Shown: positions 1-29,300, numbered from the stretch's first letter. The stretch: 32,000 bases of DNA from Acaryochloris marina S15 (GCF_018336915.1 NZ_CP064923.1:4860001-4892000); one strand, 5' to 3'. Made by a program: numbers and translations. Notes: generated from the sequence alone by a model not told the origin.

Positions 1-956
1 AAATCCCCTTGGGTAAGCTGGTCTGCATTACAGGGGTTTCGGGGTCGGGTAAATCGACGCTGATGAATGAGCTGCTTTATCCGGCATTGCAGCATCATTT
101 GGGCTTTAAGGTGCCGTTCCCCAATGAGCTAGATCGGGTTGCGGGTCTGAAAAGTCTGGATAAAGCCATCGTCATTGACCAATCCCCTATTGGCCGAACC
201 CCTCGCTCTAATCCCGCCACCTATACGGGGGTGTTTGATGTGATTCGGAGCGTGTTTTCGGAAACGGTGGAAGCTAAAGCCCGAGGGTATAAACCTGGTC
301 GGTTTTCCTTCAATGTTAAGGGGGGGCGTTGTGAAGCCTGCGGTGGGCAAGGCGTTAATGTCATTGAGATGAATTTCCTGCCGGATGTCTATGTTCAGTG
401 TGAGGTATGTAAGGGGGCAAGGTATAACCGGGAAACGCTCCAGGTGAAGTACAAGGGCAAGTCGATTGCGGATGTGCTGGCGATGACGGCGGAGGAAGCC
501 CTGAAGTTTTGTGAGAATATCCCCAAGGCAGCGAATAAGCTGCAAACGATGGTGGATGTGGGGCTAGGGTATGTACGGCTTGGACAAACGGCTCCCACAC
601 TGTCGGGTGGGGAAGCCCAGCGGTTGAAGTTGGCGACGGAGTTGTCTCGGCGAGCGACTGGGAAAACGCTTTATTTAATTGATGAACCGACGACGGGGCT
701 GTCTTTTTATGATGTTCACAAGTTGCTGGATGTGTTGCAGCGGCTGGTAGATAAGGGCAATTCAGTATTGGTGATTGAGCATAATTTGGATGTGATTCGC
801 TGCTCAGATTGGGTGATTGATCTAGGGCCGGATGGCGGCGATCGTGGGGGTGAGTTGGTGGCAACGGGTACGCCGGAGACAGTTGCGAATGTGGCTGAGT
901 CTTATACGGGGCAGTATCTTAAGCAGGTGCTAGCTCTTCATCCTCTTGCCCAATGA
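1..956 (+). CDS. uvrA: Excinuclease ABC subunit A, C-terminal ~316 aa (5' end lies upstream of the window)
   Basis: Frame is open to the window edge; the ORF-track M at 9 is an internal TTG (Leu). Second UvrA ATPase module: Walker [10 protein letters not shown], zinc finger [17 protein letters not shown] signature LSGGEAQR, Walker [17 protein letters not shown]. Confidence 0.95.
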
Positions 957-1040
957 TCCTGATAAAACCAAAAGCATAATAGCTTCTAACCAGGTGTTTT
1001 TGCTAGCTGTGGAAGGTCTGAGTTGACCTTGTTGGGACAT

Positions 1041-1073
1041 GGGGGAATAAGGAATCAACGCTTTGATTCCCCC
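1041..1073 (-). terminator. Weak stem-loop between the convergent uvrA and island-operon ends
   Basis: GGAATCAA-cgct-TTGATTCC at 1051-1070; alternative pairing GGGGGAAT/ATTCCCCC (1041-1048/1066-1073). No clean U-tract on either strand. Confidence 0.25.
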
Positions 1074-1131
1074 AATCGAACTTAAGATGATGGAGGCGGC
1101 TGACTCCATCCTTAGCTGGACAGGGCCAAAA

Positions 1132-1938
1132 TTAAATGCATGAGGTCTGTCCACCATCGACCAAAATTTCAACACCTGTCATCGAGGGTATGCAGCGTGC
1201 TCCAATAAACGCAACCAATCTTCCAATTTCTTCTGGATCAACAAATCGGCCAGTAGGAATTCGTAATTCTCGTTCTCTCAATACCTCCTCTCGAGCACAG
1301 CCTCGCATTCGGGCCTCCTCTTCTATGAGTCTTTCGATTCGTTTAGTTTTCGTGCTCCCAGGTGAAATAGTGATTACAGAAATGTTTTTATGAGCAAGTT
1401 TTTTTGCAAGCCCTTTTGAGAAATTAATAATGGCAGCATTAGCCATACTTCCAGGAAGAAAGTCTGGCCGGGGAGATCTCCCAGCACCACCAGCGATATT
1501 AATAATTGTTCCAGAACCAGACTCAACCAAATACGGAATTACCTCTTTTGCCATTCGAACATATCCAAATACCTTCAGTCTCCATGCTTCGTCGAAAACG
1601 CTAACATCAGACTCTGGAAACGCAGTCATAGGAGCAGATCCAGCACAGTTCACTAGTATATTGATCCGTTGAAACTTCTCCATTGCGAACGCTACTGCAG
1701 ACTCAGAAGCATCCTTATGTGAAAGGTCGCATGAATAAATTTGAATAGAACGATTTGAGTAATAAGGAGTTGCATCAATGATTGCGTTTCTAGCACTATC
1801 AAGCCGTTTTTCATCTCTGGCCACAAGCAATACTTCTGCTCCATATCCGGCTAAAACCTTCGCACAGTGAAAACCTATTCCCGAACTGCCACCAGTGACA
1901 ATTGCAGCTGATTGTGAAAGTCGATCAAACATTTGCAT
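1132..1938 (-). CDS. SDR-fold (short-chain dehydrogenase/reductase family) protein with atypical active site
   Basis: 268 aa. Rossmann motif TGGSSGIG, LLVARDEKR after beta2, NCAG (NNAG variant), PG motif ISPGSTKT. The expected Ser..YxxxK stretch reads NIAGGAG..PGSMANAA. ATG at 1938 (second ATG at 1932) overlaps the YciI stop. Confidence 0.85.
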   Translation of the reverse strand: MQMFDRLSQSAAIVTGGSSGIGFHCAKVLAGYGAEVLLVARDEKRLDSARNAIIDATPYYSNRSIQIYSCDLSHKDASESAVAFAMEKFQRINILVNCAGSAPMTAFPESDVSVFDEAWRLKVFGYVRMAKEVIPYLVESGSGTIINIAGGAGRSPRPDFLPGSMANAAIINFSKGLAKKLAHKNISVITISPGSTKTKRIERLIEEEARMRGCAREEVLRERELRIPTGRFVDPEEIGRLVAFIGARCIPSMTGVEILVDGGQTSCI

Positions 1939-2233
1939 TCACACCTAATATTGAGTTTAATTCGGGTAACCAACTTCCCAGCTCAAACTCGATTATTTCG
2001 TACTCTGCAACTCCTGCAATGCAAAACGGATCCTGCCTAGCAATCTCTTCAATGTCATCAAAGCTTTTGCCAACCGCAAGAATTACTCCACCCGTTCGAG
2101 GCCACTTTCGTCCTGAGAGTAAAAATGTTTGCGTCCTATAGTTTTCCCGCAGATAATCAAAATGGCGTTTTACAATTCGATCGACTTCTTCCAGTGGTTT
2201 TATATATGTGAGCAGGATTAAATGGGCTCTCAT
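1925..2233 (-). CDS. YciI-like family protein
   Basis: 102 aa. The size and the pattern RHFDYL...GGVILAV...ARQDPFCIAGV..YEI fit the YciI/DGPF fold. GAGG lies 9 nt upstream of the ATG. Confidence 0.75.
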   Translation of the reverse strand: MRAHLILLTYIKPLEEVDRIVKRHFDYLRENYRTQTFLLSGRKWPRTGGVILAVGKSFDDIEEIARQDPFCIAGVAEYEIIEFELGSWLPELNSILGVNANV

Positions 2234-2269
2234 GGAAGTGACCTCAATGATGGATATTTCAAACAGAAA

Positions 2270-2965
2270 TCAATTCAACCTAGCTCGTCGTAGAATTCTA
2301 CGACTTAAACCCGACAAAGCAGTTCTCCCATGGAGAACCCTATGATTTAGCAACCAAATTGCATCTCCAGTACGGAGATATACTTGCTGCGAATTTTGGA
2401 TATCATTCACTGCAGTTTGGACCAAATTGAGCACATGATTGGCGAAGGGTGAAAGAGGCTTGATCGAGTATTTTGTGTCACTTCTAAACCTAATACCAAT
2501 GCCTCCGGTTTCCTCAATTGGGAAGAATATACTCCCAGTCACCTCTACATTGGTAAATTTTTCACGGCGAGAGAAAACGAATAACGCACTTTCAGGGTTC
2601 TTAGTAGTAGAGGACACAATATCATAAATCGTATTTCCATCAACAATGGTGGTGACACCGTATCCATACTGATCAGATTGGACACATTGAAGCAGGATAT
2701 GTTTTGGCGGAATTTGCTCAAACGTACCGTCAGTATGTGGTCTCATTTCACTAGCAGAGTATGCGATTGAGTTAGGACGAGTTGGGATGCATGGGTCAAA
2801 CTTTACAAGACCAATAGCCTCTTCAAATATTCCATTCACACATACTCCAATTTTAGAGAGCAACCTTCGCAATGTCTCCTCACTCGTTCCAATTTCTCGA
2901 AACACATAAAAGCCTTGCTTAAGAAGACATTCAAAGCTTTCATTCCAACATAAAGCTTCATTCAT
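2270..2965 (-). CDS. TauD/TfdA-family Fe(II)/2-oxoglutarate-dependent dioxygenase
   Basis: 231 aa. HxD facial-triad motif (RPHTDGTF) and distal GDAIWLLNHRVLHGRTA, matching the family pattern GD..WDN...H.R. AAGGAG lies 6 nt upstream of the ATG. Confidence 0.8.
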   Translation of the reverse strand: MNEALCWNESFECLLKQGFYVFREIGTSEETLRRLLSKIGVCVNGIFEEAIGLVKFDPCIPTRPNSIAYSASEMRPHTDGTFEQIPPKHILLQCVQSDQYGYGVTTIVDGNTIYDIVSSTTKNPESALFVFSRREKFTNVEVTGSIFFPIEETGGIGIRFRSDTKYSIKPLSPFANHVLNLVQTAVNDIQNSQQVYLRTGDAIWLLNHRVLHGRTALSGLSRRILRRARLN

Positions 2966-2989
2966 GACTGTCTCCTTATGAACGAGAAA

Positions 2990-3835
2990 CTAATGGGTTA
3001 ATTCGAGAAAATGGTAAATCGCTTCTGCGACTCCAGAGTCATTGTTACTACCAACAATATGTTTAGCCACTGCCTTCAGTTCGGGTACGGCATTATCAAC
3101 TGCAACCCCGAAGTGAGATTTTTCAACCATTTCTATATCGTTATACCCGTCCCCAATTGCCATGATCTTTTTTTGGGTGAGGCCCTCACTCTTCAAAGCA
3201 TGAATCATAGAATCCCACTTTGATACAAACGGGGATGTGCACTCGATGTAACCTAGTCGGGTCTTGATTATTTTCAATCTGTTTGAATTGAACTCTAGTG
3301 CCTGCTTGTAGACAGTGTCTTCAAGAGGAGATTCTGTGTGAGGATTATAGTTATTTGATATTTCCAGTGGATATACGAAGAACTTGTGAAAATTTCTACA
3401 ATCTAACTTAGTTAAGTCTGACCTATATTCAAATGTTGCTCCTGTCCGCTTCTTATAGTGATCTACCACCTTGTCATCAATCGTTGTCGTTGCGAAAATC
3501 GAATCATTTGAGAACAAGACAACATTATGGTTTCTAAGATCAAATTTATCTGTTAGGAATCGCATGTCAGAATAGTTCACGCATTCTTCATAACAAGTTG
3601 TGCTATCAGAAGAACGCAAAACCAATGCTCCGTTATAACAGACGAAATACGAAAAAAGTTCTTTTGACTCCCCAATAATTCGAGTAACAGCTTGTGGCAT
3701 TCTACCGGTTGCAACTATTAAACAAACGTTTTGTTCATGAGCAACCTGCAATGCTGTTATATTTTCTTCAGAAATTTTGTTGTCGGAGTTTAAAAGAGTG
3801 TGATCTAAGTCAAGGGCAATGGCTTTCATTTTCAT
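2990..3835 (-). CDS. Cof-type HAD-IIB phosphatase
   Basis: 281 aa. HAD motif I IALDLDHTLL, motif II VATGR, motif IV GDGYNDIEM. Its ATG overlaps the stop of the upstream EPSPS-like gene (ATGA). Confidence 0.85.
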   Translation of the reverse strand: MKMKAIALDLDHTLLNSDNKISEENITALQVAHEQNVCLIVATGRMPQAVTRIIGESKELFSYFVCYNGALVLRSSDSTTCYEECVNYSDMRFLTDKFDLRNHNVVLFSNDSIFATTTIDDKVVDHYKKRTGATFEYRSDLTKLDCRNFHKFFVYPLEISNNYNPHTESPLEDTVYKQALEFNSNRLKIIKTRLGYIECTSPFVSKWDSMIHALKSEGLTQKKIMAIGDGYNDIEMVEKSHFGVAVDNAVPELKAVAKHIVGSNNDSGVAEAIYHFLELTH

Positions 3836-5139
3836 ACCCTACACTGAAGTGTAGCTCCATGTTGATTTAGTATTTCAAGAAAGGAAGGAAAGCTCTCTTT
3901 ATATTCCCCAGCATCTAAAATCTGAGTTGAACCATTTGCCACAAGCGCAGCGACTATCATGCTCATTTCGATCCTGTGGTCTTTTTCTGACTTAACAACA
4001 CAACCCGCTAGTTTTTGCGGACCAACGACTGAAAAACCATCATTCCGTGGAGTGATTTTAGCTGAAAAAGGCGATAGAGAGGTAATAATTGAATCGATTC
4101 GATCAGTATCTTTTACGCGTAATTCAGCAGCATCTCTCACCGTAGTTGTCCCATGGGCTGCGAGTGAAAGTACGGCAAATATTGGGATTTCATCTATCAT
4201 AGTCAATACTTGATCACTTGATAGCTCTATACCTCTAAGTTTAGAGTGCCTTACTCGGATATCGCCACATGGTTCACCAGCAATATTATATTGATCTTCA
4301 ATTGATATACTTGCACCCATTTCACTAACCGCATTCAGCAAACCTATTCGACCTGGGTTCAAATTGACTCTTTCAATAGTTATGTCGCTTTCGGGAACTA
4401 GGATTGCAGCTGCAATAAGAAAGGACGCCGAACTCATGTCACCAGGGATTGAAACATTCAATGGATTTAATGTTGAGGGTCTAACGAAAATCTGCCCTGG
4501 AATCGATTCAATATTTGCGCCTTGGGCTCTTAATAGTCGGACTGAGTGGTCACGTATCGTTCCTTCATATGAAATTGTTGAATTGCTCGAGGCGTTTAAT
4601 GCGGCGAGCAGTAACGCAGTTTGTAACTGCCCGCTCGAAACTGGCATCCTATAATCGATCCCATTCAATTGGCCGCCCCTCATATATACAGGGGCATGGC
4701 CGTTAGTCGTTTCAACTGTAGCTCCCATTAAGCGCAATGGGAGCGCCACTCTCTCCATCGGTCTTTGATTTAATACATTATCCCCAATAAGATACACATC
4801 TGAAGGAACTGCTGCTAAAGCCCCCATAAAGAATCGCATCGTAGTAGCAGATCTCTTGCAATCGACGGTAATTTTCGGCCGATTGTACTCTAATAATGGG
4901 CATCCAGTTATTTTGGCTGTTGGCGATCCCTCACTGTTTGTGAAAATTTTAATTGGAACACCAAGGTTGACAAGTACATCAACCATATGACGAGTTGTGT
5001 TGGCATCGAGGATATTTTCAATAACTGAATTACCTCTTGCAAAGCTTGCAAATAACAGAGCACGGTGTGATATAGATTTATCGCCTGGTAATCTGACTCT
5101 TCCGAGTAGAGGTCCTGACCTTTTTATCTCAATAATCAT
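3832..5139 (-). CDS. aroA: 3-phosphoshikimate 1-carboxyvinyltransferase (EPSP synthase) family paralogue, class II-like, divergent PEP site
   Basis: 435 aa. LPGDKSISHRALLF, VSSGQLQTALLLAAL, RDHS, PGDMSSASF, IDEIPIFAV, AAELRVKDTDRI and DHRIEM fit EPSPS. The usual GN(A/S)GT(A/T)MR loop reads KRSATTMR, and RVKE reads RVKD. Confidence 0.85.
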   Translation of the reverse strand: MIIEIKRSGPLLGRVRLPGDKSISHRALLFASFARGNSVIENILDANTTRHMVDVLVNLGVPIKIFTNSEGSPTAKITGCPLLEYNRPKITVDCKRSATTMRFFMGALAAVPSDVYLIGDNVLNQRPMERVALPLRLMGATVETTNGHAPVYMRGGQLNGIDYRMPVSSGQLQTALLLAALNASSNSTISYEGTIRDHSVRLLRAQGANIESIPGQIFVRPSTLNPLNVSIPGDMSSASFLIAAAILVPESDITIERVNLNPGRIGLLNAVSEMGASISIEDQYNIAGEPCGDIRVRHSKLRGIELSSDQVLTMIDEIPIFAVLSLAAHGTTTVRDAAELRVKDTDRIDSIITSLSPFSAKITPRNDGFSVVGPQKLAGCVVKSEKDHRIEMSMIVAALVANGSTQILDAGEYKESFPSFLEILNQHGATLQCRV

Positions 5140-5149
5140 GTATTCATTC

Positions 5150-5971
5150 CTATGTCATGCGAGTTCTTAGGGCAATTCGAAATCCCGTGGCTTGTCCTCT
5201 GAATGTGATGAGATTTCGACAGCGGTATGCAGAATGAACATGCTCAACAGGTGCCTGCCACCCACTACCTCTCACCACACGTCGGTCTGCCTCTCCATTT
5301 GTTTCGATAGGATCTATTAGATTGCCATCTGCTCTTAACCGATATGCATAAGGATTCCACATATCAAGGCACCATTCCCACACATTTCCAAGTTGTGAGA
5401 CTGTACCAAACGGACTAGAAACATGTGAGAATAAGTCTGAGTTAACTGGTTGTCCGGCTTTCAAGTCTTGACCGTACCTTGCAAGCTGAGAATTTGGCAA
5501 TTCGTACCCCCAAGGATATGGTCTAGAATCTCTTCCCCTCGCTGCATACTCCCACTGAGCTTCGGTAGGCAGTGTTACGGTTGTATTAGATATATCTGAA
5601 AACCATTCACAGAAAGCAATAGCATCCTCCCAAGAAACGTAAGTAACTGGTACTGTATTATCTATTAATCTATCTGTAACAAAGGACTTAGGGTGATCAC
5701 GCTTTGTTGAATCTAAGAATTGGACAAACTGATTAACAGTGACAGGATTTCTAGACATCCAAAATGTAGACAAAGCAACCCAATGCGGTGGTTGAGAAAA
5801 ATGGAGATCAGCAAGCCCCATCTCAAACATTCCACCCTCTACTTCAACGAATTCCATTCCGGCAACACGTTTAATCTCAATCATCGATCGGGCAGCTGAG
5901 ATAGTTGGTTGTGAAAACTCAATGCCAACCGGGTAATAATTCGAACCATCTGCCTTTTTCTGGCCCGCCAC
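5150..5971 (-). CDS. Formylglycine-generating-enzyme (SUMF1/EgtB/PvdO) fold protein
   Basis: 273 aa. FGE-sulfatase motifs VTVNQF, VSWEDAIAFCEW, LPTEAQWEYAARG, GNVWEWC, RVVRGSGW, GFR. The ORF-track start is GTG with no obvious SD; the ATG at MIEIKR is an alternative start. Confidence 0.8.
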   Translation of the reverse strand: MAGQKKADGSNYYPVGIEFSQPTISAARSMIEIKRVAGMEFVEVEGGMFEMGLADLHFSQPPHWVALSTFWMSRNPVTVNQFVQFLDSTKRDHPKSFVTDRLIDNTVPVTYVSWEDAIAFCEWFSDISNTTVTLPTEAQWEYAARGRDSRPYPWGYELPNSQLARYGQDLKAGQPVNSDLFSHVSSPFGTVSQLGNVWEWCLDMWNPYAYRLRADGNLIDPIETNGEADRRVVRGSGWQAPVEHVHSAYRCRNLITFRGQATGFRIALRTRMT

Positions 5972-5997
5972 TTTTGGCGAATTGATTTGTAACGAGC

Positions 5998-6855
5998 CTA
6001 AGAAGGGTTTTGAATCAAATTAAGACATTCTTGAAGGAATAGACAGTGTGACTTGTATAGAGTCGCTTCCCGGTTCACAGGCTTGCAAATACTTATGTGA
6101 TCTTCCTCTAGTGGAATTGCCTTTTCATGTGGAATGCGTGGCTCAGCACTTGTAGGATCAACAACAAGAAAACTGACCCCCGGGTTTATTGTGTGATTAA
6201 AGAAAGGAATCGTAATTCCTGGCTTAATCTTTTGTCTTTCGGCGAATGCACGACAAACCATTTTTCTGTTGCTAACTACTTTAAGAAATGCAGTGTGAAG
6301 CGAATTTAATTGACTACTGTGGTGCTGAAGTGCGGATACTTGTTCTGAAGTGTTTAACAGCAAACTAAAAAAATTTGCAAAGCTTGCCAAATTTGCCCCT
6401 GCATGTGGAGTTGCAATGAAACTCACACCTAAAACCTTTTCGCCGAGCAACTCCCACCTTGGGACATCCTGGGAAAATGCGTGAATTATCAACTGTTTTG
6501 CAACCAAACCACCTAAACTATGTGTAATGAAAATAATTGGCCGTGATCCTAATTCGCATGCCACCATTTCTTCGAGAATCGTGTCACCTAAATCCTCAAG
6601 CGGCATCGAATCCTTCACCCAAGCTGATATCGAACTGCTATACCCCATTGTCCAAATGTTTAGATTGGGAAAAGAGCGTGCGAGCCAATCTGGCCAGAAT
6701 TTCTCAACATCTTGTTCATAGGCCCATGTGGTTTGGGAACCACCACCAAGGCCATGAATGAAAATCACATCAGCATCTATATCATTGTGGTGGGCCAACA
6801 CTTCTGTTTCAAGTTTGAGACTTACTTTAGTTGCATCCACCAATTCTGTTCTCAA
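5998..6855 (-). CDS. Alpha/beta-hydrolase, DUF676/PGAP1-like (SesB-like) putative serine esterase/lipase
   Basis: 285 aa. VIFIHGLGGGSQTTW..FWPDWL..IWTMGY..PIIFITHSLGGLVAKQ (nucleophile elbow HSLGG), ATPHAG, late DH pair. TTG start at 6855 is preceded by GGAGGG 6-7 nt upstream. Confidence 0.8.
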   Translation of the reverse strand: MRTELVDATKVSLKLETEVLAHHNDIDADVIFIHGLGGGSQTTWAYEQDVEKFWPDWLARSFPNLNIWTMGYSSSISAWVKDSMPLEDLGDTILEEMVACELGSRPIIFITHSLGGLVAKQLIIHAFSQDVPRWELLGEKVLGVSFIATPHAGANLASFANFFSLLLNTSEQVSALQHHSSQLNSLHTAFLKVVSNRKMVCRAFAERQKIKPGITIPFFNHTINPGVSFLVVDPTSAEPRIPHEKAIPLEEDHISICKPVNREATLYKSHCLFLQECLNLIQNPS

Positions 6856-7243
6856 GGTTTACCCTCCGCTTCATAGGAACTTGCAAGCATTGGAGCATAA
6901 AATGTATCTTATCAAGAAAGTCTGGAAAGATTGGCTTCAACCCAGTGTTATGGAGATCTTCAGTTAAGCAAAGGCCTAAATCTCCAAACAAAGCTGCTTT
7001 CTAGCATATGGATTAAATGTGAACTGCAGAGCTATATGAGTACTACTACAATAAAGTAGACAACTTGCAGTCAAAACTCACAAAATAGTCGTCTAACGAT
7101 CCGTATTTACACAACGACATGAATGATCTCAAACATCAATTTGGAGAACGAATATCCAAGTTTATGACAGAGATAAAATATCCAATTCAGTAAATCTTTA
7201 ACTGTTTTCCTCACAAAGAACACGAGCATGATGCCTCCAATGT

Positions 7244-8491
7244 TTGGAGATAGAACAGTTGACATCTGATATACAATCCAAGAATCAGCCAGTAGACATC
7301 AACCTAAAGCACCCAAACTCCAACCTAAAACAAGTCGGAATCATCGGTGCAGGCCCAGCCGGACTAGCAACAGCAATCACCCTCAGAAAGCAAGGCATAG
7401 ATGTCCACATCTATGAACGCGCCAAAGCCTTTCGACCCATTGGCGCAGGCGTCACCCTATCCCCCAACGGCATCAGAAGCCTAGCCGCCATTGATGCCGA
7501 TATTGTCCAGCAACTTAAACAGCAAGGCTCACAACTCAATCGCTTCCGAATCAGAACCACTAGAGGATGGCCCATCCTCAACCAACCCGTCAAAGACGAC
7601 GAATACGATCAGCCCTTCCTAGCCATTCGCTGGTTTAGCCTCCAAGAAATCATGAGGGCCAAACTCCCCCCAGAAATCCTGCATCTCAATCATCAACTCA
7701 TTCACTTTGAGCAGACCCAGCAAGGCGTCAACCTGTCCTTTGAAAATGGCGAAACGGCAAGCGTTGATCTCCTCATTGGTGCAGACGGCATTCGTTCCGT
7801 CGTTCGTAAACAGCTCTTTGGCCTAGAAGACCCAGCCTATGGGGGCTGGATGACCTGGCGTGGTGTTCAAAAATATCAGCATCGTTTGCTCCCTCCTCAC
7901 CACACCACCATTTTTGCCACAGGCGGCAAGAGCCTAATTCTTCTAGATAACGCTCAAGGTTACGTTTCTTGGGCATTGGAGATGGCCACTCCCACCGTTA
8001 TTCGTTCCCAAAACCCCGAAGCAGCAAAAGCCCAAGTCCTCAAAGAACTCTCCAACTGGCATCCTGCCCTGCAAGAACTGATCAACCTAACAGATGCAAA
8101 TACGATCGTTGAAAGACCCGTTTGCGAACCTATGATCTTGCCTAAATGGAGCAAAGACAGAGTTACCCTAGTCGGGGATGCCGCCCATCCCATGGCCCCC
8201 TTTTTAGGACAGGGCACTAACACCACTTTTGAAGATGTGTTGGCACTGTCCACCTGTATCTCCCAACAGGAAACTCTAGAAGCCGTTTTAAAAAAGTACG
8301 AAGCCAGTCGTATAGAACGCGCCCATATCATTCAATATCGGACGATGTTTTCTGCAGCTCAAATGCGTAACCCTTTTCTGCGACCCCAATGGTTTAAGAC
8401 ACCATTAGGAACAGTGCCCAACCAAGCCAAAGTCAGTGAAAAAGCGTTTTCAGATTGGCTGTATCAGTATGATCCAAGCGCCCAAACTTAG
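7244..8491 (+). CDS. FAD-dependent aromatic-ring monooxygenase (salicylate-hydroxylase/UbiH-like)
   Basis: 415 aa. GxGxxG IIGAGPAGLA, GADGIRSVVR, GDAAHPMAPFLGQGTNTTFED. Only a TTG start is available after the in-frame stop at 7229. Confidence 0.85.
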   Translation: MEIEQLTSDIQSKNQPVDINLKHPNSNLKQVGIIGAGPAGLATAITLRKQGIDVHIYERAKAFRPIGAGVTLSPNGIRSLAAIDADIVQQLKQQGSQLNRFRIRTTRGWPILNQPVKDDEYDQPFLAIRWFSLQEIMRAKLPPEILHLNHQLIHFEQTQQGVNLSFENGETASVDLLIGADGIRSVVRKQLFGLEDPAYGGWMTWRGVQKYQHRLLPPHHTTIFATGGKSLILLDNAQGYVSWALEMATPTVIRSQNPEAAKAQVLKELSNWHPALQELINLTDANTIVERPVCEPMILPKWSKDRVTLVGDAAHPMAPFLGQGTNTTFEDVLALSTCISQQETLEAVLKKYEASRIERAHIIQYRTMFSAAQMRNPFLRPQWFKTPLGTVPNQAKVSEKAFSDWLYQYDPSAQT

Positions 8492-8658: not shown

Positions 8659-9789
8659 TTCAACCTTTAATTCAGAACTAAGTTAGTTCAGGAATTAGCC
8701 GTTGATGACAGGAGCAGTAAGAGCAACAGGAGCAGACTCACCAGCAGCCAAGTCTAAGGGGAAGTTATGAGCATTGCGCTCGTGCATAACTTCGAAACCT
8801 AGGTTTGCGCGGTTAAGAACGTCAGCCCATGTGTTCACAACGTTACCTTGTGAATCAACGATGGAGTGGTTGAAGTTGAATCCGTTCAAGTTGAAAGCCA
8901 TGGTGCTGATGCCCATTGCAGTCAACCAGATGCAGACAACGGGCCAGGCACCCAAGAAGAAGTGCAAGGAACGGCTGTTGCTGAAAGATGCATATTGGAA
9001 GATCAAACGACCGAAGTAGCCGTGGGCTGCAACGATGTTATAGGTCTCTTCCTCTTGGCCGAACTTGTAACCGTAGTTGGCGGACTCACCTTCGGTGGTC
9101 TCACGAACTAGGGTGGAGCTAACCAAGGAACCGTGCATGGCGGCGAATAAGGAACCACCCAAGACTCCAGCCACACCAAACATGTGGAAGGGGTGCATCA
9201 AGATGTTGTGCTCAGCTTGGAACACGAACATGAAGTTGAAGGTTCCGCTGATGCCTAGAGGCATGCCGTCGGAGAAGCTGCCCTGACCTAGTGGGTAGAT
9301 CAAGAAGACGGAGTAGGTAGCAGCCAATGGTGCAGAGTAAGCTACGCAAATCCAAGGACGCATCCCTAGGCGATAGCTATATTCCCACTGACGGCCTAGG
9401 TAGCAAATACAACCAATCATGTAATGGAAGATGATTAGCTGGTAAGGGCCACCGTTGTACAACCACTCGTCTAGAGAAGCTGCTTCCCAAATGGGATACA
9501 GGTGAAGACCAATAGCGTTAGAGGAAGGAACAACGGCACCAGTGATGATGTTGTTGCCATATAAAAGTGAACCAGCTACGGGCTCACGGATTCCATCGAT
9601 GTCGACGGGAGGGGCGCCAATAAAGGCGATTACGAAACAGGTTACAGCGGTGAGAAGGGTAGGAATCATCAATACGCCGAACCAACCGATGTATAAACGG
9701 TTGTTGGTGCTGGTGATGAAGCTACAGAATCTTTCCCATGCGCTGGCGCTTTCGCGTCTTTGCAAGACTGTTGTCATGGTTATGATTGC
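8659..9789. repeat. Tandem direct repeat unit 1 (psbA CDS plus 36 nt 3' and 12 nt 5' flank)
   Basis: My line-by-line comparison with 10129-11259 found all 1131 nt identical except 8691 g versus 10161 a. Period is 1470 bp. Confidence 0.95.
8695..9777 (-). CDS. psbA: Photosystem II reaction-centre protein D1 (copy 1)
   Basis: 360 aa, unmistakable D1. Tyr161, Asp170, Glu189, His190 and [13 protein letters not shown] are present. C-terminus is ..HNFPLDLA followed by a 16-aa extension. Residue 130 is Gln. Confidence 0.98.
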
Positions 9790-10130: not shown

Positions 10131-11259
10131 CAACCTTTAATTCAGAACTAAGTTAGTTCAAGAATTAGCCGTTGATGACAGGAGCAGTAAGAGCAACAGG
10201 AGCAGACTCACCAGCAGCCAAGTCTAAGGGGAAGTTATGAGCATTGCGCTCGTGCATAACTTCGAAACCTAGGTTTGCGCGGTTAAGAACGTCAGCCCAT
10301 GTGTTCACAACGTTACCTTGTGAATCAACGATGGAGTGGTTGAAGTTGAATCCGTTCAAGTTGAAAGCCATGGTGCTGATGCCCATTGCAGTCAACCAGA
10401 TGCAGACAACGGGCCAGGCACCCAAGAAGAAGTGCAAGGAACGGCTGTTGCTGAAAGATGCATATTGGAAGATCAAACGACCGAAGTAGCCGTGGGCTGC
10501 AACGATGTTATAGGTCTCTTCCTCTTGGCCGAACTTGTAACCGTAGTTGGCGGACTCACCTTCGGTGGTCTCACGAACTAGGGTGGAGCTAACCAAGGAA
10601 CCGTGCATGGCGGCGAATAAGGAACCACCCAAGACTCCAGCCACACCAAACATGTGGAAGGGGTGCATCAAGATGTTGTGCTCAGCTTGGAACACGAACA
10701 TGAAGTTGAAGGTTCCGCTGATGCCTAGAGGCATGCCGTCGGAGAAGCTGCCCTGACCTAGTGGGTAGATCAAGAAGACGGAGTAGGTAGCAGCCAATGG
10801 TGCAGAGTAAGCTACGCAAATCCAAGGACGCATCCCTAGGCGATAGCTATATTCCCACTGACGGCCTAGGTAGCAAATACAACCAATCATGTAATGGAAG
10901 ATGATTAGCTGGTAAGGGCCACCGTTGTACAACCACTCGTCTAGAGAAGCTGCTTCCCAAATGGGATACAGGTGAAGACCAATAGCGTTAGAGGAAGGAA
11001 CAACGGCACCAGTGATGATGTTGTTGCCATATAAAAGTGAACCAGCTACGGGCTCACGGATTCCATCGATGTCGACGGGAGGGGCGCCAATAAAGGCGAT
11101 TACGAAACAGGTTACAGCGGTGAGAAGGGTAGGAATCATCAATACGCCGAACCAACCGATGTATAAACGGTTGTTGGTGCTGGTGATGAAGCTACAGAAT
11201 CTTTCCCATGCGCTGGCGCTTTCGCGTCTTTGCAAGACTGTTGTCATGGTTATGATTGC
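10129..11259. repeat. Tandem direct repeat unit 2 (psbA CDS plus flanks)
   Basis: See unit 1. Identity breaks at 11260 (t versus g) and to the left of 10129. Confidence 0.95.
10165..11247 (-). CDS. psbA: Photosystem II reaction-centre protein D1 (copy 2, protein identical to copy 1)
   Basis: The 360-aa translation is identical to copy 1, and the CDS nucleotides were identical in my comparison. Confidence 0.98.
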
Positions 11260-19145: not shown

Positions 19146-20036
19146 CTATGGAGCAGGTGCTACCGTTGACTCATAGATAGGGGCTGGTTTTTCCCTAATG
19201 CGTTGGGCAATGGGTTGAACGCGTTTAACTACCTTGATCAAGTATTCATAATCAGGCGGCTGGGCATTGGAGATGTAACCCACCGAACGTTTTGTTTTGG
19301 GCGCAGCAGATTCTAAGGCATCCAATAGCTGAGTCTGTAAGACATTATCAACATCTGGCCCAATGAGTACTGCTCCTGAAGGCACCAAATGGGAGTCCCG
19401 ATGCAAAATCCGAAAGTCTGCATCCTTGAAATCGGCACGATATTGCCCTAATTCTGCCAAAGACAAAGCACCTGCAGCCACTTCCCCCTGATTGATCCAC
19501 TTCAATACCTCTTTAGGGGTGGAGCCAAATTTGATCTCGGCGAGGGTCAAACCATACAAATTAAAGACCGGAAAATAGTAGCCAGCCGCAGATCCTCTCT
19601 GACCTAAGGCAACAGTTGTGTTACTGAGATCTTTAATAGCCATAGCAGGGTGATCATCACGAACAACGATGACCGATCGTTCTTGATCTCCACCTTCACG
19701 AGGCAAGAGTGGAACATACTGAGCCTGAGAAATAGCGATTGCGGCCAACCCAGGAGGCGCAAAAACTAAATCCCAATTTTGCCGTTCAATCTGATCGATA
19801 GCCTGAATTTCATTGAGAGCAGGCTCTAATTCAATTAGGCTTTTTAATTCCGCCCCTAAATGCTCTTTTAATGCGGCATATTGCTCTAATGAGCGGGCCC
19901 CTTCACCATAACTAACCACACCGACCACTAATTTCTTCAAGGTTGTATTTTCAGTAGAGTCACAGGCTACCAACAACCACAAAATAGGTAATAAGAAAAC
20001 CAAAAAAAAACGGCGTGAATGCATCTTCAAGATCAT
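19146..20036 (-). CDS. PhnD-like (phosphate/phosphonate-type) periplasmic substrate-binding lipoprotein
   Basis: 296 aa. Signal peptide with lipobox LLVAC. A type-2 SBP pattern (VVGVVSYG.., DLVFAPPG, GSAAGYYFP) is reminiscent of PhnD. No permease or ATPase gene is adjacent. Confidence 0.65.
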   Translation of the reverse strand: MILKMHSRRFFLVFLLPILWLLVACDSTENTTLKKLVVGVVSYGEGARSLEQYAALKEHLGAELKSLIELEPALNEIQAIDQIERQNWDLVFAPPGLAAIAISQAQYVPLLPREGGDQERSVIVVRDDHPAMAIKDLSNTTVALGQRGSAAGYYFPVFNLYGLTLAEIKFGSTPKEVLKWINQGEVAAGALSLAELGQYRADFKDADFRILHRDSHLVPSGAVLIGPDVDNVLQTQLLDALESAAPKTKRSVGYISNAQPPDYEYLIKVVKRVQPIAQRIREKPAPIYESTVAPAP

Positions 20037-20263
20037 AAAAAAACTTCATCTAACTTATCTATGCTTGATCTTGTCGCGGTTCGTCTAGCTAGGCTAAGCT
20101 TGGAAATAGCTATAAGCTAGCAAAATCAATTGTTTCGAAGTATCACAATGACTAGAAGCGCAGAGGATAATATCCCAGGATAGACCACATTCTACAGTGA
20201 CATCAATAGAGAGTTGATCGTAGTAATAATTCTCCGTTTGAAAATAATTGTTTTACCTTTACA

Positions 20264-20289
20264 TGACTTAAAGGTCTGGTATTAAGTCA
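20264..20289. promoter_or_regulatory. Inverted repeat TGACTTAA-N10-TTAAGTCA in the divergent intergenic region
   Basis: 8-bp perfect arms, ending 54 nt upstream of the ATG at 20343. Candidate operator; no known consensus assigned. Confidence 0.25.
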
Positions 20290-20342
20290 CTCAGTCTTGA
20301 AGAATAATACTCACCATGAACAATAGCTAAGGAATCCTGCCA

Positions 20343-21263
20343 ATGTTCCAAAATCTCAAGTTGGGCGTCAAGCTAAACCTCATTTTGCTGTCGGTTTTCT
20401 TAATTATTGTTCTGATTAATGGTTTGCTTTTATCTAATATCCTGCAGAAGAATGCGGAGCAAGAAGTCAAGGATAAAGCCCTAGTCCTAATTGAGACCAT
20501 GACTTCTGTGCGCGAATATACCAGTAAGCAAGTAAACCAAGGGACAATCAAAAAGCTATCTCCTGAATTAGAGATTGATGGTCAGTTTGTCAAGACAAGC
20601 GTGCCTGGCTATTCCGCTCGGGAAGTCTTTAGTAACCTACAAAAACGTGAGCAGTACAGTGACTTCTTCTATAAAGAAGCAACCCTAAACCCTACTTATC
20701 CTCGCGATAAAGCCGATAGATTCGAAACTGAAGTCGTTGAAAAATTCCGCAGTCAACCAGATTTGCAAGAGCAAGTCGGTTTTCGCAAAATTTCAGCTGG
20801 AGACCTATTTTATATTGCACGACCTTTGCAGATTAAAAGTGAAAGTTGTTTAGTCTGCCACAGTACCCCTGAAAAAGCCCCCGCTAGCCAAATTAAAACC
20901 TACGGAGATACCGGTGGTTTTGGTTGGGAACTCAATGAGATTATTGGCGCTCAAATGATTTCCGTACCGGCCAGCAAGGTATTTGCAGAAGCTCGACGAT
21001 TGCAATTGCTTGTAATCGGCATCCTAGCAGCAGGCTTTATCGTTGCAGCCGTTATTCTCAACCTGTTCTTGAAATTCTCAATTATTACGCCCTTGACCAA
21101 AATGTCCAAGTGGTCACGAGATGTCAGCACAGGGGCGTCAGATACTGATTTTGAACATAAGCCTAATGATGAAATCGGGGTACTTGCAGCTTCTGTGAAC
21201 CGCTTGAAAGTCAGCTTGGAAATGGCAATGAATATGCTCAAGCAGAACCCTGACAATCCTTAA
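20343..21263 (+). CDS. Membrane-anchored c-type-heme DUF3365 (Tll0287-like) sensor domain plus HAMP, no output domain
   Basis: 306 aa. N-terminal TM, periplasmic domain with the heme-c motif CLVCH, second TM, then a HAMP-like ITPLTKM..DEIGVLAASVNRL. The protein ends about 25 aa later. Confidence 0.75.
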   Translation: MFQNLKLGVKLNLILLSVFLIIVLINGLLLSNILQKNAEQEVKDKALVLIETMTSVREYTSKQVNQGTIKKLSPELEIDGQFVKTSVPGYSAREVFSNLQKREQYSDFFYKEATLNPTYPRDKADRFETEVVEKFRSQPDLQEQVGFRKISAGDLFYIARPLQIKSESCLVCHSTPEKAPASQIKTYGDTGGFGWELNEIIGAQMISVPASKVFAEARRLQLLVIGILAAGFIVAAVILNLFLKFSIITPLTKMSKWSRDVSTGASDTDFEHKPNDEIGVLAASVNRLKVSLEMAMNMLKQNPDNP

Positions 21264-24081: not shown

Positions 24082-24206
24082 TGGGTCGATTATGAACGAG
24101 GGAACTAGGGCTTCGTATTAGGATCCCATTCGATCACATTCGAACATTGATCAATATTAATCCCATTAAAGTTCGAATCCTTCAAGATAAAGTTATTCCG
24201 CAACAC

Positions 24207-25532: not shown

Positions 25533-26421
25533 GCGAGGGTAATTAACAGAATGGGAGTAAAGCAGCAAAGGTCAGACCGAAAGATTCCAGTCATGATTCG
25601 CGGCGGTGTAAAGATAGTGTTTTGCCAAGTCGCAGGCAGTAGGACTCTAGGGTGAAGTCCAATACTGTTTCGGTTGAATGCCTTCATCTATGAGGTATGA
25701 CATCGGGGTGATAACCCGAGGAATCATGGGCAGAAGACAGGTTGTCTCATCAACAATTTCTTTTACCCCCTATAGAAATATCAACAGCTTCCAGGATCTT
25801 TATGCAAGTTCCAGAAAACATATTGGAAGGTTACCCATATTCACAGAATTTACTTGCGGCTAATGGGTTCGGATCGAACGGGTGACAATTACGACTTTCT
25901 AGTTTCAGTTTATGGGGCCAAGGGCGCCACGAAAATGATCTCTGTCATCCCTACATCTTTCTTATGATCAATAGTGGTTGGTGATCTAGCTCAAGATCAC
26001 ATCGTGTCAGACTTCTACAGATATTCTGGGAGTCTTGGTCTAGATACATGGCCTTTCGTCAGCACAGCTGACAAAAAATCACTTCAGAGTGTCTATGCAG
26101 AGAACATCCGCTTTTCTAGATATTTTATAAGCCAATAGTTGTAGTTTTATATACTTATCTCAAACAGTCTAGAGTAGAAAGATAAGGCACGATTTCAACT
26201 TGGCCAATGAAATTATTTTCATGCTATGGAAACAATGATGATCTCTCATTACCTTACTTAAAGCCTTATAGAGGAAGGAAGTGACAATTCTGAGCATATC
26301 CCCATTCTGAATATGAGCCATTCGGTTAATATTCGTCTTAAAACTTTACAGACAACAATTCCTAATCACCCTAAATGAGGCGATTAGGAGAATGATGTTA
26401 TTCAGCGCAGCGGGTTCTTAA

Positions 26422-29300
<2,879 letters not shown>

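Follow-up and report, generated by a model that had tools for sequence, protein, structure and literature searches.

Seven open reading frames run in the same direction on the minus strand, from position 6855 to position 1132 of the 32,000-nucleotide stretch of Acaryochloris marina S15 DNA analysed here (the window), and are spaced by 26, 10, -4, 24, 36 and -14 nt (Table 1). An earlier note on this DNA had described such a block, and both the reading frames and the spacings match it exactly. The four SD-like tracts that it listed were also located, namely GGAGGG before 6855, AGGAA before 5139, AAGGAG before 2965 and GAGG before 2233; the FGE gene starts with GTG (5971) and has no obvious SD upstream. 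Pfam and NCBIfam searches returned the family proposed for each gene: a DUF676/PGAP1-type α/β hydrolase (weak), FGE-sulfatase, EPSP synthase (EPSPS), Cof-type HAD-IIB, TauD, YCII and SDR.

Table 1 Features of the locus, in window coordinates.
Feature	Position	Strand	Length	Description
Replaced cassette	946-7311			Strain-specific insertion in the uvrA-to-monooxygenase slot, defined by blastn homology break and GC
Convergent spacer	957-1131			uvrA stop to SDR stop; inside the non-homologous cassette
Gene 7	1132-1938	-	268 aa	AerF-like atypical SDR without Ser/Tyr/Lys triad
Gene 6	1925-2233	-	102 aa	YCII-family protein; stop overlaps SDR start; window-specific accessory
Gene 5	2270-2965	-	231 aa	Small Fe(II)/2-oxoglutarate dioxygenase, TauD family
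Gene 4	2990-3835	-	281 aa	Cof-type HAD-IIB phosphatase; ATGA overlap, translationally coupled to EPSPS
Gene 3	3832-5139	-	435 aa	Extra divergent Chloroflexi-type EPSP synthase; remodelled PEP-side pocket
Gene 2	5150-5971	-	273 aa	Stand-alone FGE-sulfatase (C-type-lectin-fold, 'FGS') domain protein
Gene 1	5998-6855	-	285 aa	Alpha/beta serine hydrolase (ABH), DUF676/PGAP1-like; window-specific accessory
Divergent intergenic region	6856-7243		388 bp	Between ABH start (6855, -) and monooxygenase start (7244, +)

From the tight spacings, the two overlaps, the uniform GC3 and the lack of any terminator-like signal above shuffled background between the seven genes, we infer that they are co-transcribed as a single unit. 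Within the block, promoter-like hexamers are as frequent as in the background. The operon promoter and leader presumably lie in the divergent intergenic region, where a promoter scan called no promoter-like site on the operon (minus) strand, the sole such site being at 7057-7086 on the plus strand, and where no Rfam match (E ≤ 1) was obtained and no riboswitch was found in the leader. At the other end of the block, a terminator scan of the convergent spacer called no terminator-like stem-loop.

The cassette has a GC content of 41.7%, whereas the remainder of the window has 47.8%, and mean GC3 is 0.341 for the block compared to 0.492 for the other window genes. The six block genes that encode 150 aa or more all fall below each of the 17 others in GC3 (Mann-Whitney U = 0, p = 4e-4); the seventh, the YciI gene, has a GC3 of 0.35, and the range over all seven is 0.30-0.38. 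These computations clearly set the block, described earlier as AT-rich, apart from the rest of the window. The HIP1 palindrome GCGATCGC occurs seven times in the window where 0.29 copies would be expected by chance, and all seven perfect copies lie beyond 11.6 kb, leaving the block without any, as had been observed. Searches also bore out the reported absence of an adjacent tRNA and of flanking direct repeats: the nearest tRNA is at least 31.4 kb from the block, and no direct repeats bracketing it were found.

Homology detected by blastn to MBIC11017, AP026075 and CCMEE 5410 (85-92% identity) ends at about 943-945 and resumes at about 7312-7325, and the whole block is absent from these sister Acaryochloris strains, whose slot instead contains either a TIR_2-WD40 gene (1409 aa) or a DUF4365 gene with one for an unknown protein. 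The uvrA-to-monooxygenase interval is a hypervariable slot, in which the foreign cassette takes the place of other cargo. All five block proteins that were looked up are singletons among about 15 billion proteins. Taken together, these data support the view of a compact, compositionally foreign, strain-specific cassette with core genes on both sides. Variable slots carry resistance cargo besides defence genes, according to one source (10.1101/2024.01.28.577318).

The EPSPS scores 336.9 bits against TIGR01356 (cut-off 287.25), and its best non-self matches are Anaerolineae aroA genes inside shikimate operons, at about 50% identity. As these are housekeeping copies and the block is absent from the sister strains, a native aroA is likely present elsewhere in the genome. 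The enzyme retains K22, R27, R124, S169, D313, K340, R344, H385 and R386. Two positions that are invariant in 109 relatives, E. coli E341 and A170, are changed to D and G, and N94 is changed to R, as in 11 of the 109. At the 90 columns conserved at ≥98%, the window EPSPS has 11 changes, compared to a background mean of 0.42 (109 relatives), and EPSPS copies linked to a small TauD gene carry 7-12 changes at invariant columns. Among the three such copies of Chloroflexi type, E341D is found in all, Q171H/S in two and A170G in two, and the 168-171 loop is altered in each; the core catalytic and S3P-contact residues are kept, save S23A in one. The three are not monophyletic in an NJ tree. The E→D change is also seen in EPSPS genes that resemble ordinary housekeeping copies (L100-L102), and is thus not diagnostic.

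The phosphatase scores 161.3 bits against TIGR00099 (cut-off 137) and contains all four HAD motifs. The dioxygenase matches Pfam TauD at 7e-20, and its best non-self match is 32% identical. A profile search with the small TauD gave about 16 further clusters above 175 bits, 207-238 aa in length (226-238 aa in 15 cases), after which the next matches drop to 117 bits, leaving a sharp subfamily boundary. On these profile scores, gene 5 defines a rare TauD subfamily of about 17 clusters, related to TmpA and gamma-butyrobetaine dioxygenase; the best PDB matches are TmpA (6npb, 2e-18) and BBOX1 (3e-15), and H77-x-D79, H212 and R223 are invariant across the 17 members. Catalytic motifs are intact in the HAD, TauD and hydrolase proteins.

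Six small-TauD gene contexts were inspected. In the five other loci, the neighbours include EPSP synthase (three loci), a shikimate kinase or shikimate operon (two), a phosphatase (four) and a close relative of the FGE-fold protein (one). Locus L006 has the order EPSPS-HAD-TauD, with a HAD 32% identical to gene 4 and the same 4-nt EPSPS overlap. L089 has VOC-EPSPS-TauD immediately upstream of a full shikimate operon with its own second, canonical aroA, and this unit comes straight after, and overlaps, an NB-ARC-WD40 STAND gene. L104 has HTH.FGE-HAD-TauD (47%, 39% and 38% identity to the window FGE, HAD and TauD proteins), with no EPSPS within 17 kb, and adjoins PIN, PemK, PhdYeFM and HEPN/MNT genes. 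In L103 a shikimate-kinase-like gene overlaps TauD within a large biosynthetic-looking cluster that also holds HAD and EPSPS genes, and in L007 a metallophosphoesterase gene adjoins TauD. Conflict-type genes lie beside three of the six contexts. None of 80 genome loci with more distant TauD relatives has EPSPS or HAD beside TauD, and no small-TauD relatives were found on viral contigs. Co-occurrence had been put forward earlier as a check on the block, and it is partial: the full seven-gene set does not recur outside this genome, and the ABH, YciI and SDR genes were not seen with the core in other loci, whereas the core (FGE-fold, EPSPS, Cof-HAD and small TauD) does recur together, in unrelated bacteria and in few loci.

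The FGE-fold protein matches PF03781 at 1.3e-38, and both FGE catalytic Cys residues are replaced. A role as an FGE or EgtB enzyme was rejected, given the lost Cys residues and EgtB/SenA/PvdO scores far below the cut-offs, and judged by its sequence the protein belongs to the binding/sensor class. Its nearest relatives are HTH-FGE fusions (P0244, 60% identity; P0284 at L104, 47%), and others are TIR-, NACHT-TIR- and pentapeptide-FGE proteins. In cyanobacterial conflict systems, FGS has been described as a domain that binds and has no enzymatic activity (PMC7159879; PMC10907252).

The hydrolase matches Pfam DUF676 (8e-07) and PGAP1 (8e-06), and aligns to the N-terminal half of the 474-position PADLOC profile PDLC02918 'DUF626_VIII' at 4e-38. 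It carries HGLGG, THSLGG and a C-terminal DH, and has no PDB sequence relative; its AF2 model is unusable (pLDDT 35). Gene 6 matches Pfam YCII (1.2e-11) and nothing in NCBIfam, PDB or PADLOC, and its AF2 model is of low confidence (pLDDT 53). For gene 7 (adh_short, 1.7e-40), TGxxxGxG is present and YxxxK is absent, in keeping with the 'triad-less SDR' of the earlier note. It does not appear to be a dead fold, however, as the best PDB match, 6JH7 (3.4e-36), is AerF, which acts in the Choi pathway as an NADPH-dependent reductase of alkenal double bonds and reduces a cyclohexadienyl intermediate derived from prephenate, and the Tyr/Lys-less segment is common to both. Gene 7 is a putative NADPH C=C (enone/alkenal) reductase.

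We tentatively read the block, with a probability of about 0.4, as one strain-specific operon, gained horizontally, for a small-molecule pathway that branches from the shikimate pathway at S3P/EPSP. The extra EPSPS would move an enolpyruvyl group, or one much like it, onto S3P, with PEP or an analogue of PEP as donor, and the coupled Cof phosphatase would strip the 3-phosphate; because chorismate synthase requires that phosphate, the dephosphorylated intermediate would be committed away from chorismate. The small dioxygenase would then hydroxylate or oxidise the ring or side chain, and in Acaryochloris the YCII protein and the AerF-like ene-reductase would isomerise and reduce the resulting enone or alkene. 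An ester may be trimmed or released by the serine hydrolase, and the FGE-fold protein may bind substrate or product; in the closest relatives, the HTH-fused FGE domain probably regulates the operon. This branch is suggested by the recurrence of the core in the same order and with the same overlaps, by the dioxygenase lying beside shikimate genes, by the S3P-contact and core catalytic residues kept in the EPSPS, and by the resemblance of the SDR to AerF. Against it, the full set is unique to this genome, L104 lacks an EPSPS, the TauD-linked EPSPS copies are not monophyletic and conflict-type genes adjoin half of the six inspected contexts. Plain EPSP synthesis also gives no obvious reason for E341D and the 168-171 loop changes, a pattern just as compatible with a resistance copy or with a different donor. 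The earlier note had offered three hypotheses, of which an enolpyruvyl-transfer small-molecule pathway is best supported; an antimetabolite with a self-resistance EPSPS is still in play, and gains weight from the remodelling of the PEP-side pocket, while the case for a conflict or defence module is circumstantial. As that note had said, no characterised pathway or defence system with this gene set was found, here in PADLOC and literature searches. The recurring core near shikimate genes suggests a pathway for a small molecule, or a resistance module, that has yet to be described and would act at the step that glyphosate blocks.

The EPSPS changes could instead mark a (self-)resistance module against an EPSPS-directed antimetabolite, which we consider unlikely. 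The EPSPS would then be a target-replacement copy with a remodelled PEP/inhibitor pocket and normal catalysis, the TmpA-like dioxygenase and the phosphatase would inactivate or process a phosph(on)ate-type toxin (or, in a producing organism, synthesise it), and the FGE-fold protein would sense it. E341D, Q171H/S and A170G do fall on glyphosate/PEP-contact positions that are otherwise 100% invariant, the TauD-linked copies carry an excess of invariant-column changes, and the same E→D in three non-clade copies suggests parallel selection, although housekeeping-looking copies share it. To our knowledge no natural EPSPS inhibitor is known, and no account of EPSPS serving as a marker of self-resistance turned up in our literature search. 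The L089 EPSPS is an extra copy, given the separate canonical aroA of its host, and a VOC/glyoxalase-family protein is added there; the VOC superfamily takes in fosfomycin- and bleomycin-resistance proteins. Among solved structures, the TauD protein is closest to TmpA, a phosphonate hydroxylase; HTH fusions as the closest FGE relatives are what an inducible operon would be expected to show, and variable slots are known for resistance cargo (source cited above). A resistance role nevertheless leaves the AerF-like reductase, YciI and hydrolase unexplained, L104 has no EPSPS, and the EPSPS-phosphatase ATGA coupling in two loci resembles consecutive pathway steps.

An anti-phage or other conflict module, with the hydrolase as effector, the FGE-fold protein as sensor of an invader molecule, and the EPSPS, phosphatase and dioxygenase making an antiviral small molecule or draining S3P/PEP on a trigger, seems rather improbable. 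The PADLOC match of the hydrolase, the TIR, NACHT-TIR and pentapeptide repeats fused to FGE-domain relatives, the described role of FGS domains (PMC7159879; PMC10907252) and the TIR-WD40 or DUF4365 genes in the same slot of sister strains all favour it; but the other six proteins drew no PADLOC match, there is no complete known system, the hydrolase was not observed alongside the core in other loci, and the closest FGE relatives, as HTH fusions, are more regulator-like than effector-like. The toxin-antitoxin-type genes near L104 and the STAND gene at L089 are weak evidence, as such genes are very abundant in these phyla, small-TauD relatives are absent from viral contigs, and recurrent linkage is strongest with enzymes of the shikimate pathway, not with defence genes. 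We give a similarly low probability to a mosaic in which unrelated accessory genes share an island; hydrolase and FGE could, for instance, form one pair, EPSPS-HAD-TauD a unit and YciI-SDR a second pair, all with separate roles. Elsewhere only sub-sets do recur, ABH, YciI and SDR are window-specific, and the 36-nt and 26-nt gaps could house internal promoters, with promoter-like hexamers no more than background. The uniform GC3 suggests one donor, however, and the tight packing, two overlaps and SD-like tracts argue against a mosaic, as does the L104 FGE protein, which ties the 'left' pair to the HAD-TauD core; the nearest solved relative of the SDR also acts on a shikimate-pathway-derived ring, as expected downstream of EPSPS.

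Compared to known systems, the window EPSPS resembles the housekeeping class II-like AroA of Anaerolineae/Chloroflexi over its full length and, as in most relatives, Ala stands where E. coli has Gly96. It differs in lying outside a shikimate operon, as an island-borne extra coupled to a phosphatase and a dioxygenase, and in having Asp for the catalytic Glu341, Arg for Asn/Gly94 and an altered 168-171 loop. Gene 7 shares with AerF, at moderate identity, the Tyr/Lys-less active-site segment and, as proposed here, a position downstream of a shikimate-pathway-derived, non-aromatic ring intermediate. BacG, an atypical SDR ene-reductase of the bacilysin pathway, is grouped with AerF (aeruginosin-Choi). 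Unlike the AerF and BacG pathways, the block lacks an AerD/BacA prephenate decarboxylase, an AerE/BacB cupin isomerase and an NRPS, and entry here would be at S3P/EPSP instead of prephenate. Gene 5 keeps the HxD...H triad and 2OG-binding Arg of TmpA/BBOX1, but at about 230 aa it has no N-terminal domain, reaches 44 bits where the equivalog cut-offs are 268-415, and stands apart in a rare subfamily that has invariant residues of its own and a gene context linked to shikimate.

In the early nikkomycin/polyoxin pathway, enolpyruvyl transfer to UMP by NikO/PolA is followed by phosphatase and Fe/2OG oxygenase steps. The block would likewise combine a PEP-dependent enolpyruvyl transferase acting on a phosphorylated alcohol with a phosphatase and a 2OG-dependent oxygenase. 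Unlike NikO, its transferase is a genuine AroA-type EPSPS with S3P-binding residues, and the block has no radical-SAM enzyme (NikJ/PolH) or aminotransferase, its recurrent neighbours being shikimate-pathway genes. Finally, gene 2 has the same Pfam domain as the FGS proteins of cyanobacterial conflict/DGR systems (Kaur et al. 2020) and, like them, no catalytic cysteines; in its closest relatives the domain forms the C-terminal part of TIR, NACHT, pentapeptide or HTH proteins. In contrast to those systems, gene 2 is stand-alone and linked to metabolic enzymes, with no STAND, vWA or MoxR partner or DGR reverse transcriptase nearby, and in the two multidomain proteins most closely related to it the domain is fused to an HTH, which suggests regulation rather than invader neutralisation.

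All seven minus-strand ORFs described in the earlier note are present at the coordinates it gave, and its gene spacings (26, 10, -4 (ATGA), 24, 36 and -14 nt), SD-like tracts and seven family calls were likewise recovered, the calls with both Pfam and NCBIfam profiles. Gene 2, encoding the FGE-fold protein, starts with a GTG at 5971, 26 nt past the hydrolase stop and with no recognisable SD before it; GenBank also gives it 273 aa, and lists the SDR (gene 7) at 266 aa, two codons less than the longest ORF. No internal terminator signal rises above background within the block, and we infer that the seven genes are co-transcribed as a single operon. The suspected AT-richness was borne out, with a GC content of 41.7% in the cassette vs 47.8% in the remaining window, as was the preference for A/T-ending codons (mean GC3 0.34 vs 0.49 outside, with disjoint ranges; U=0, p=4e-4) and the placement of all HIP1 sites of the window (7/7) outside the block. 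Every block gene has a GC3 between 0.30 and 0.38, a uniformity that points to one donor of low GC. Two further patches of low GC (0.40-0.43) occur in the window. An FHA-domain ABC transporter fusion and an adjoining Ser/Thr kinase, also in the window, may form a phospho-regulated exporter pair.

To place the block among its relatives, sister genomes were retrieved via the exact psbA protein and the flanks then aligned. Homology to the sister strains (85-92% identity) stops at window position ~945, the end of uvrA, and restarts at ~7312-7325, just within the FAD monooxygenase gene, so that the flanks align, the interval does not, and the block is missing from the sisters. In MBIC11017 and AP026075 the slot holds a single 1409-aa TIR_2-WD40 gene, and in CCMEE 5410 a DUF4365 gene plus a gene of unknown type. 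With three different contents among the strains, the slot has at least three alternative cargos including the block, and the uvrA-to-FAD-monooxygenase interval is a hypervariable, cargo-swapping hotspot in Acaryochloris. Of the hallmarks of a classical integrative island, the block has foreign composition and presence/absence polymorphism; as the earlier note had read it, an integrase (no such domain in the block), a tRNA target (closest tRNA 31.4 kb off) and bracketing direct repeats are lacking. A search for a riboswitch at the block found none. The GenBank accessions of the five block proteins looked up fall inside the run QUY41892-QUY41898 on a host chromosome of 5.88 Mb, and all five are singletons at 90% clustering of ~15 billion proteins. 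The neighbouring psbA locus, a tandem pair in this strain, has one copy in MBIC11017, two in AP026075 (one called at 324 aa) and two in CCMEE 5410.

Coordinates of the block genes, other window features and features of compared loci. Positions refer to the window unless a locus handle is given.
Locus	Position	Strand	Feature	Match or content
Window	5998-6855	minus	Gene 1, DUF676/PGAP1-like alpha/beta hydrolase	Pfam match weak
Window	5150-5971	minus	Gene 2, FGE-sulfatase domain	1.3e-38
Window	3832-5139	minus	Gene 3, EPSP synthase	336.9 bits vs aroA cut-off 287.25
Window	2990-3835	minus	Gene 4, Cof-type HAD-IIB	161.3 bits vs cut-off 137
Window	2270-2965	minus	Gene 5, TauD	7e-20
Window	1925-2233	minus	Gene 6, YCII	1.2e-11
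Window	1132-1938	minus	Gene 7, SDR	1.7e-40
Window	8695-9777 and 10165-11247	minus	Tandem psbA pair	identical 360-aa D1 proteins
Window	19146-21263		Low-GC patch	phosphonate-binding ABC substrate-binding protein and Tll0287-like/HAMP protein; sister strains carry both
Window	21346-25568	minus	FHA-domain ABC transporter fusion (911 aa) adjoining Ser/Thr protein kinase (453 aa)	two FHA, ABC_tran, ABC2_membrane in the fusion
Window	~25500-27000		Low-GC patch	between Ser/Thr kinase gene and CNNM/CBS gene
L090/L092	12427-16656		Sister-strain slot cargo
L094	12653-14140		Sister-strain slot cargo
L089	5804-12230		Small-TauD unit	NB-ARC-WD40 STAND gene (1228 aa) overlaps VOC start; VOC overlaps variant EPSPS; TauD next
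L103	3865-19570		Small-TauD cluster	NTP_transf_5, flavin reductase, NDK-like, methyltransferase, shikimate-kinase-like, small TauD, ThiO-like FAD oxidase, APH, ROK kinase, HAD, GFO/MocA, DegT aminotransferase, dTMP-kinase-like, EPSPS (aroA-scoring); then opposite-strand DUF6444 gene and NRPS condensation (C) domain
L100	247-1581		EPSPS with Asp for catalytic Glu (KD[TS]DR)	otherwise canonical
L101	666-1790		EPSPS with Asp for catalytic Glu (KD[TS]DR)	otherwise canonical
L102	405-1685		EPSPS with Asp for catalytic Glu (KD[TS]DR)	otherwise canonical

EPSP synthase, the target of glyphosate, is usually viewed as a single-copy housekeeping enzyme. Gene 3 passes the TIGR01356 equivalog profile, with residues 13-429 aligned, and its closest relatives (~50% identical) are housekeeping aroA genes in complete shikimate operons of Anaerolineae; it is thus xenologous to true EPSPS enzymes rather than a NikO/MurA-like protein. 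A NikO-type nucleotide enolpyruvyl transferase was rejected, as the protein is AroA-type with intact contact residues for shikimate-3-phosphate (S3P). No other aro genes lie beside gene 3 in the window, and because the sister strains manage without the block we infer a native aroA elsewhere in the host genome. An exact-sequence look-up of the gene 3 protein in a contig index gave no match, and a plasmid search returned unrelated matches only, these being ordinary plasmid-borne aroA genes.

The residues of E. coli EPSPS (1G6S) that contact its ligands were mapped onto 109 close relatives. Gene 3 retains K22, R27, R124, S169, D313, K340, R344, H385 and R386, and position 94 is Arg. Within the contact set K22/S23/R27/R124/S169-Q171/D313/K340/E341/R344/R386 it differs at two positions: catalytic residue 341 is Asp vs Glu in 109/109 relatives, and residue 170 is Gly vs Ala in 109/109. 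Asp at the catalytic Glu was seen in only 3 of 120 homologues, namely the Chloroflexi-type, TauD-adjacent copies of the window, L006 and L089. At 90 columns conserved to at least 98% among the 109 relatives, these copies carry 11, 12 and 7 substitutions, respectively, against a background mean of 0.42 and maximum of 5, and the changes cluster at E341 and the 168-171 loop. An NJ tree does not unite the three as a clade, and ordinary relatives reach 69% identity to the L089 copy; the common changes could have arisen in parallel, or long branches may have distorted the tree. A metagenome scan with an Asp-specific pattern recovered three more EPSPS genes (L100-L102), with canonical motifs, ordinary neighbours and no TauD. 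Glu341->Asp was therefore dismissed as a diagnostic signature or proof of new function: it is compatible by itself with a normal EPSPS, enzymes of housekeeping appearance evidently tolerate it on occasion, and gene 3 may retain EPSPS activity despite it.

The 231-aa TauD protein (gene 5) is a near-orphan, with a top non-self match of 32% identity. A profile search added ~16 clusters with lengths of 207-238 aa (226-238 aa in 15 cases), all above 175 bits and with the next match at 117 bits; the protein belongs to a rare subfamily with a sharp boundary. The Fe(II)/2-oxoglutarate dioxygenase set H77, D79, H212 and R223 is invariant in 17 subfamily members and lines up with the ligands of the closest solved relatives, TmpA and BBOX1. 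A TmpA/BBOX/TMLH equivalog was excluded, since gene 5 scores 40-44 bits vs cut-offs of 268-415; it is also shorter than those enzymes (~360-390 aa), and their N-terminal domain was not found. An exact look-up of the protein matched nothing but a Logan contig of 3.9 kb, itself identical to the window. Scanning genome contigs with the TauD profile gave distant GBBH/TauD proteins only (<=32%), none of 80 loci having an EPSPS or HAD gene adjoining TauD, and no match in the Acaryochloris species representative. Plasmids yielded unrelated matches, such as a cryptophycin-type locus, and viral contigs no TauD relatives.

Six small-TauD contexts were compared. L006 (63% GC) has the order EPSPS-CofHAD-TauD, and its EPSPS and HAD genes overlap by 4 nt, just as they do in the window. 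L089 (46% GC) has VOC-EPSPS-TauD, followed immediately by a full shikimate operon whose own aroA, the second at this locus, belongs to another class; a DHQase fragment and an SK-DHQS fusion in duplicate are also present there. L104, from a Bryobacterales MAG, has HTH.FGE-CofHAD-TauD and no EPSPS within 17 kb; its HAD and TauD are the closest to the window proteins among the retrieved loci (39% and 38% identical), and its FGE domain is 47% identical to gene 2, with only the HTH-FGE protein P0244 (60%) closer. In L103 (65% GC) a shikimate-kinase-like gene overlaps TauD within a long co-directional cluster of biosynthetic look, which matched no known cluster, and in L007 a metallophosphoesterase gene adjoins TauD. 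The earlier note had asked whether its seven genes co-occur in other genomes: the complete set was not found elsewhere, whereas a core made up of the FGE-fold protein, EPSPS, the Cof phosphatase and the small TauD does recur. Within the shikimate pathway, the anchor point of this core is the S3P node.

Gene 4 carries all the expected motifs of the Cof-type HAD family TIGR00099 (DLDHT, VATGR, the conserved Lys and GDGYND), and the oxyanion motif, nucleophile elbow and DH motif of the hydrolase are intact. Gene 2 was rejected as an FGE/SUMF1 enzyme, as both catalytic, copper-binding cysteines of the CxxxxC motif are absent ('FLCHESYC' of T. curvata FGE, 6s07, aligns with 'WQAPVEHV'), and as an EgtB/OvoA/SenA synthase, as it consists of the C-terminal FGE domain only and lacks DinB (80.7 bits vs 360 for EgtB, 71.9 vs 420 for SenA). 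In an exhaustive search its relatives were mostly giant multi-repeat proteins or C-terminal domains of TIR, NACHT-TIR, pentapeptide and HTH proteins, the nearest (60% identity) having an XRE-like HTH at its N-terminus. This picture matches the 'FGS' domain, described as a non-enzymatic binding domain of cyanobacterial conflict systems (PMC7159879; PMC10907252). The SDR lacks the classical YxxxK, the region reading IAGGAG...GSMANAAIINFSK. Its closest solved relative is AerF (6JH7; 3.4e-36), which has the same Tyr/Lys-less segment, and gene 7 is on these grounds a putative AerF/BacG-type ene-reductase; the AerF class comprises atypical reductases acting on non-aromatic rings derived from the shikimate pathway. 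No solved sequence relative was found for the hydrolase or the YciI protein, single-sequence AlphaFold models of both (pLDDT 35 and 53) were of too low a quality to be searched for similar folds, and no informative relative of YciI was found. PHROGs matches were uninformative.

We tentatively read the block as a small-molecule pathway branching from the shikimate pathway at S3P/EPSP (probability about 0.4), on the strength of the compact foreign cassette, the recurrence of the core, the intact catalytic motifs and the linkage to shikimate genes. In such a pathway the gene 3 EPSPS would convert S3P to EPSP or a near analogue, and the coupled Cof phosphatase would strip the 3-phosphate. Because chorismate synthase needs this phosphate, its loss would divert the intermediate, which the small dioxygenase would then oxidise. 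In Acaryochloris, the YCII protein and the AerF-like reductase would process the unsaturated system formed, and the hydrolase would trim an ester. The FGE-fold protein would bind substrate or product, acting as a regulator where fused to an HTH.

The same core could instead confer resistance, or self-resistance, to an EPSPS-directed antimetabolite. The changes in EPSPS fall at glyphosate/PEP-contact positions and spare the core catalytic and most S3P-contact residues, the L089 enzyme is an extra copy, the oxygenase is TmpA-like and a VOC gene is a neighbour; against this, we found no literature report of EPSPS as a self-resistance marker, and we consider the idea unlikely. The idea of a conflict or anti-phage module draws on the FGS class of gene 2, the TIR-WD40 cargo of the sister-strain slot, the TA genes of L104 and, in L089, a STAND gene that overlaps the unit. 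The hydrolase also matches the PADLOC-DB v2 family PDLC02918 'DUF626_VIII' (4e-38), covering only the first half of the 474-position profile. This support is wholly circumstantial. None of the six other block proteins matches PADLOC-DB v2, and a complete known defence system is absent. The surroundings of the hydrolase hold neither a reverse transcriptase nor another partner gene, and no literature report of the family name was found. We hold such a module to be quite improbable. Little credence is likewise given to a functionless mosaic, since GC3 is uniform and the FGE protein ties the left end of the block to the core. A bolder proposal, which we regard as a long shot, is that the module is the footprint of natural chemical warfare at EPSPS, making or protecting from an antimetabolite of EPSPS or chorismate synthase, with the island EPSPS as an insensitive replacement. 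In this proposal the antimetabolite would be S3P-derived or a PEP analogue, and the insensitive enzyme would be the one bearing the parallel Glu341->Asp and 168-171-loop changes.

An extra EPSPS seems to have been recruited repeatedly to a rare accessory module, where its partners are a small oxygenase dedicated to the purpose and a phosphatase. This recurrent partnership was unexpected, as was an apparently parallel change in the catalytic residue of glyphosate's target, invariant in 109 close relatives, in the linked enzymes of three non-clustering lineages. If the module is biosynthetic, it would mark S3P/EPSP as a new point of departure from the shikimate pathway, and its product in this chlorophyll-d cyanobacterium would probably be a new metabolite of the cyclohexene-carboxylate type. 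If it is protective, natural EPSPS-directed antimetabolites would be implied, and the EPSPS variants would be naturally evolved ones of agronomic interest; chemical warfare, if true, would be the first evidence of a natural counterpart to glyphosate-type inhibition. The HTH fusions adjoining metabolic genes also offer a testable example of an FGE/C-lectin-fold domain as a small-molecule-linked sensor.

Each protein belongs to a known superfamily, and the novelty would lie in the recruitment of a primary-metabolism enzyme as the centre of an accessory operon for a small molecule or for resistance. The earlier note knew of no characterised pathway or defence system of this kind, and PADLOC and the literature agree, with no report found of an EPSPS+TauD cluster. 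The Choi/bacilysin-type prephenate pathway was excluded because AerD/BacA and AerE/BacB domains occur in 0/7 proteins; the module resembles Choi and bacilysin pathways in its ring-reduction logic without belonging to them. It likewise resembles the early nucleoside-antibiotic pathway in passing from enolpyruvyl transfer through a phosphatase to 2OG oxygenases, and is not a member of that pathway either.
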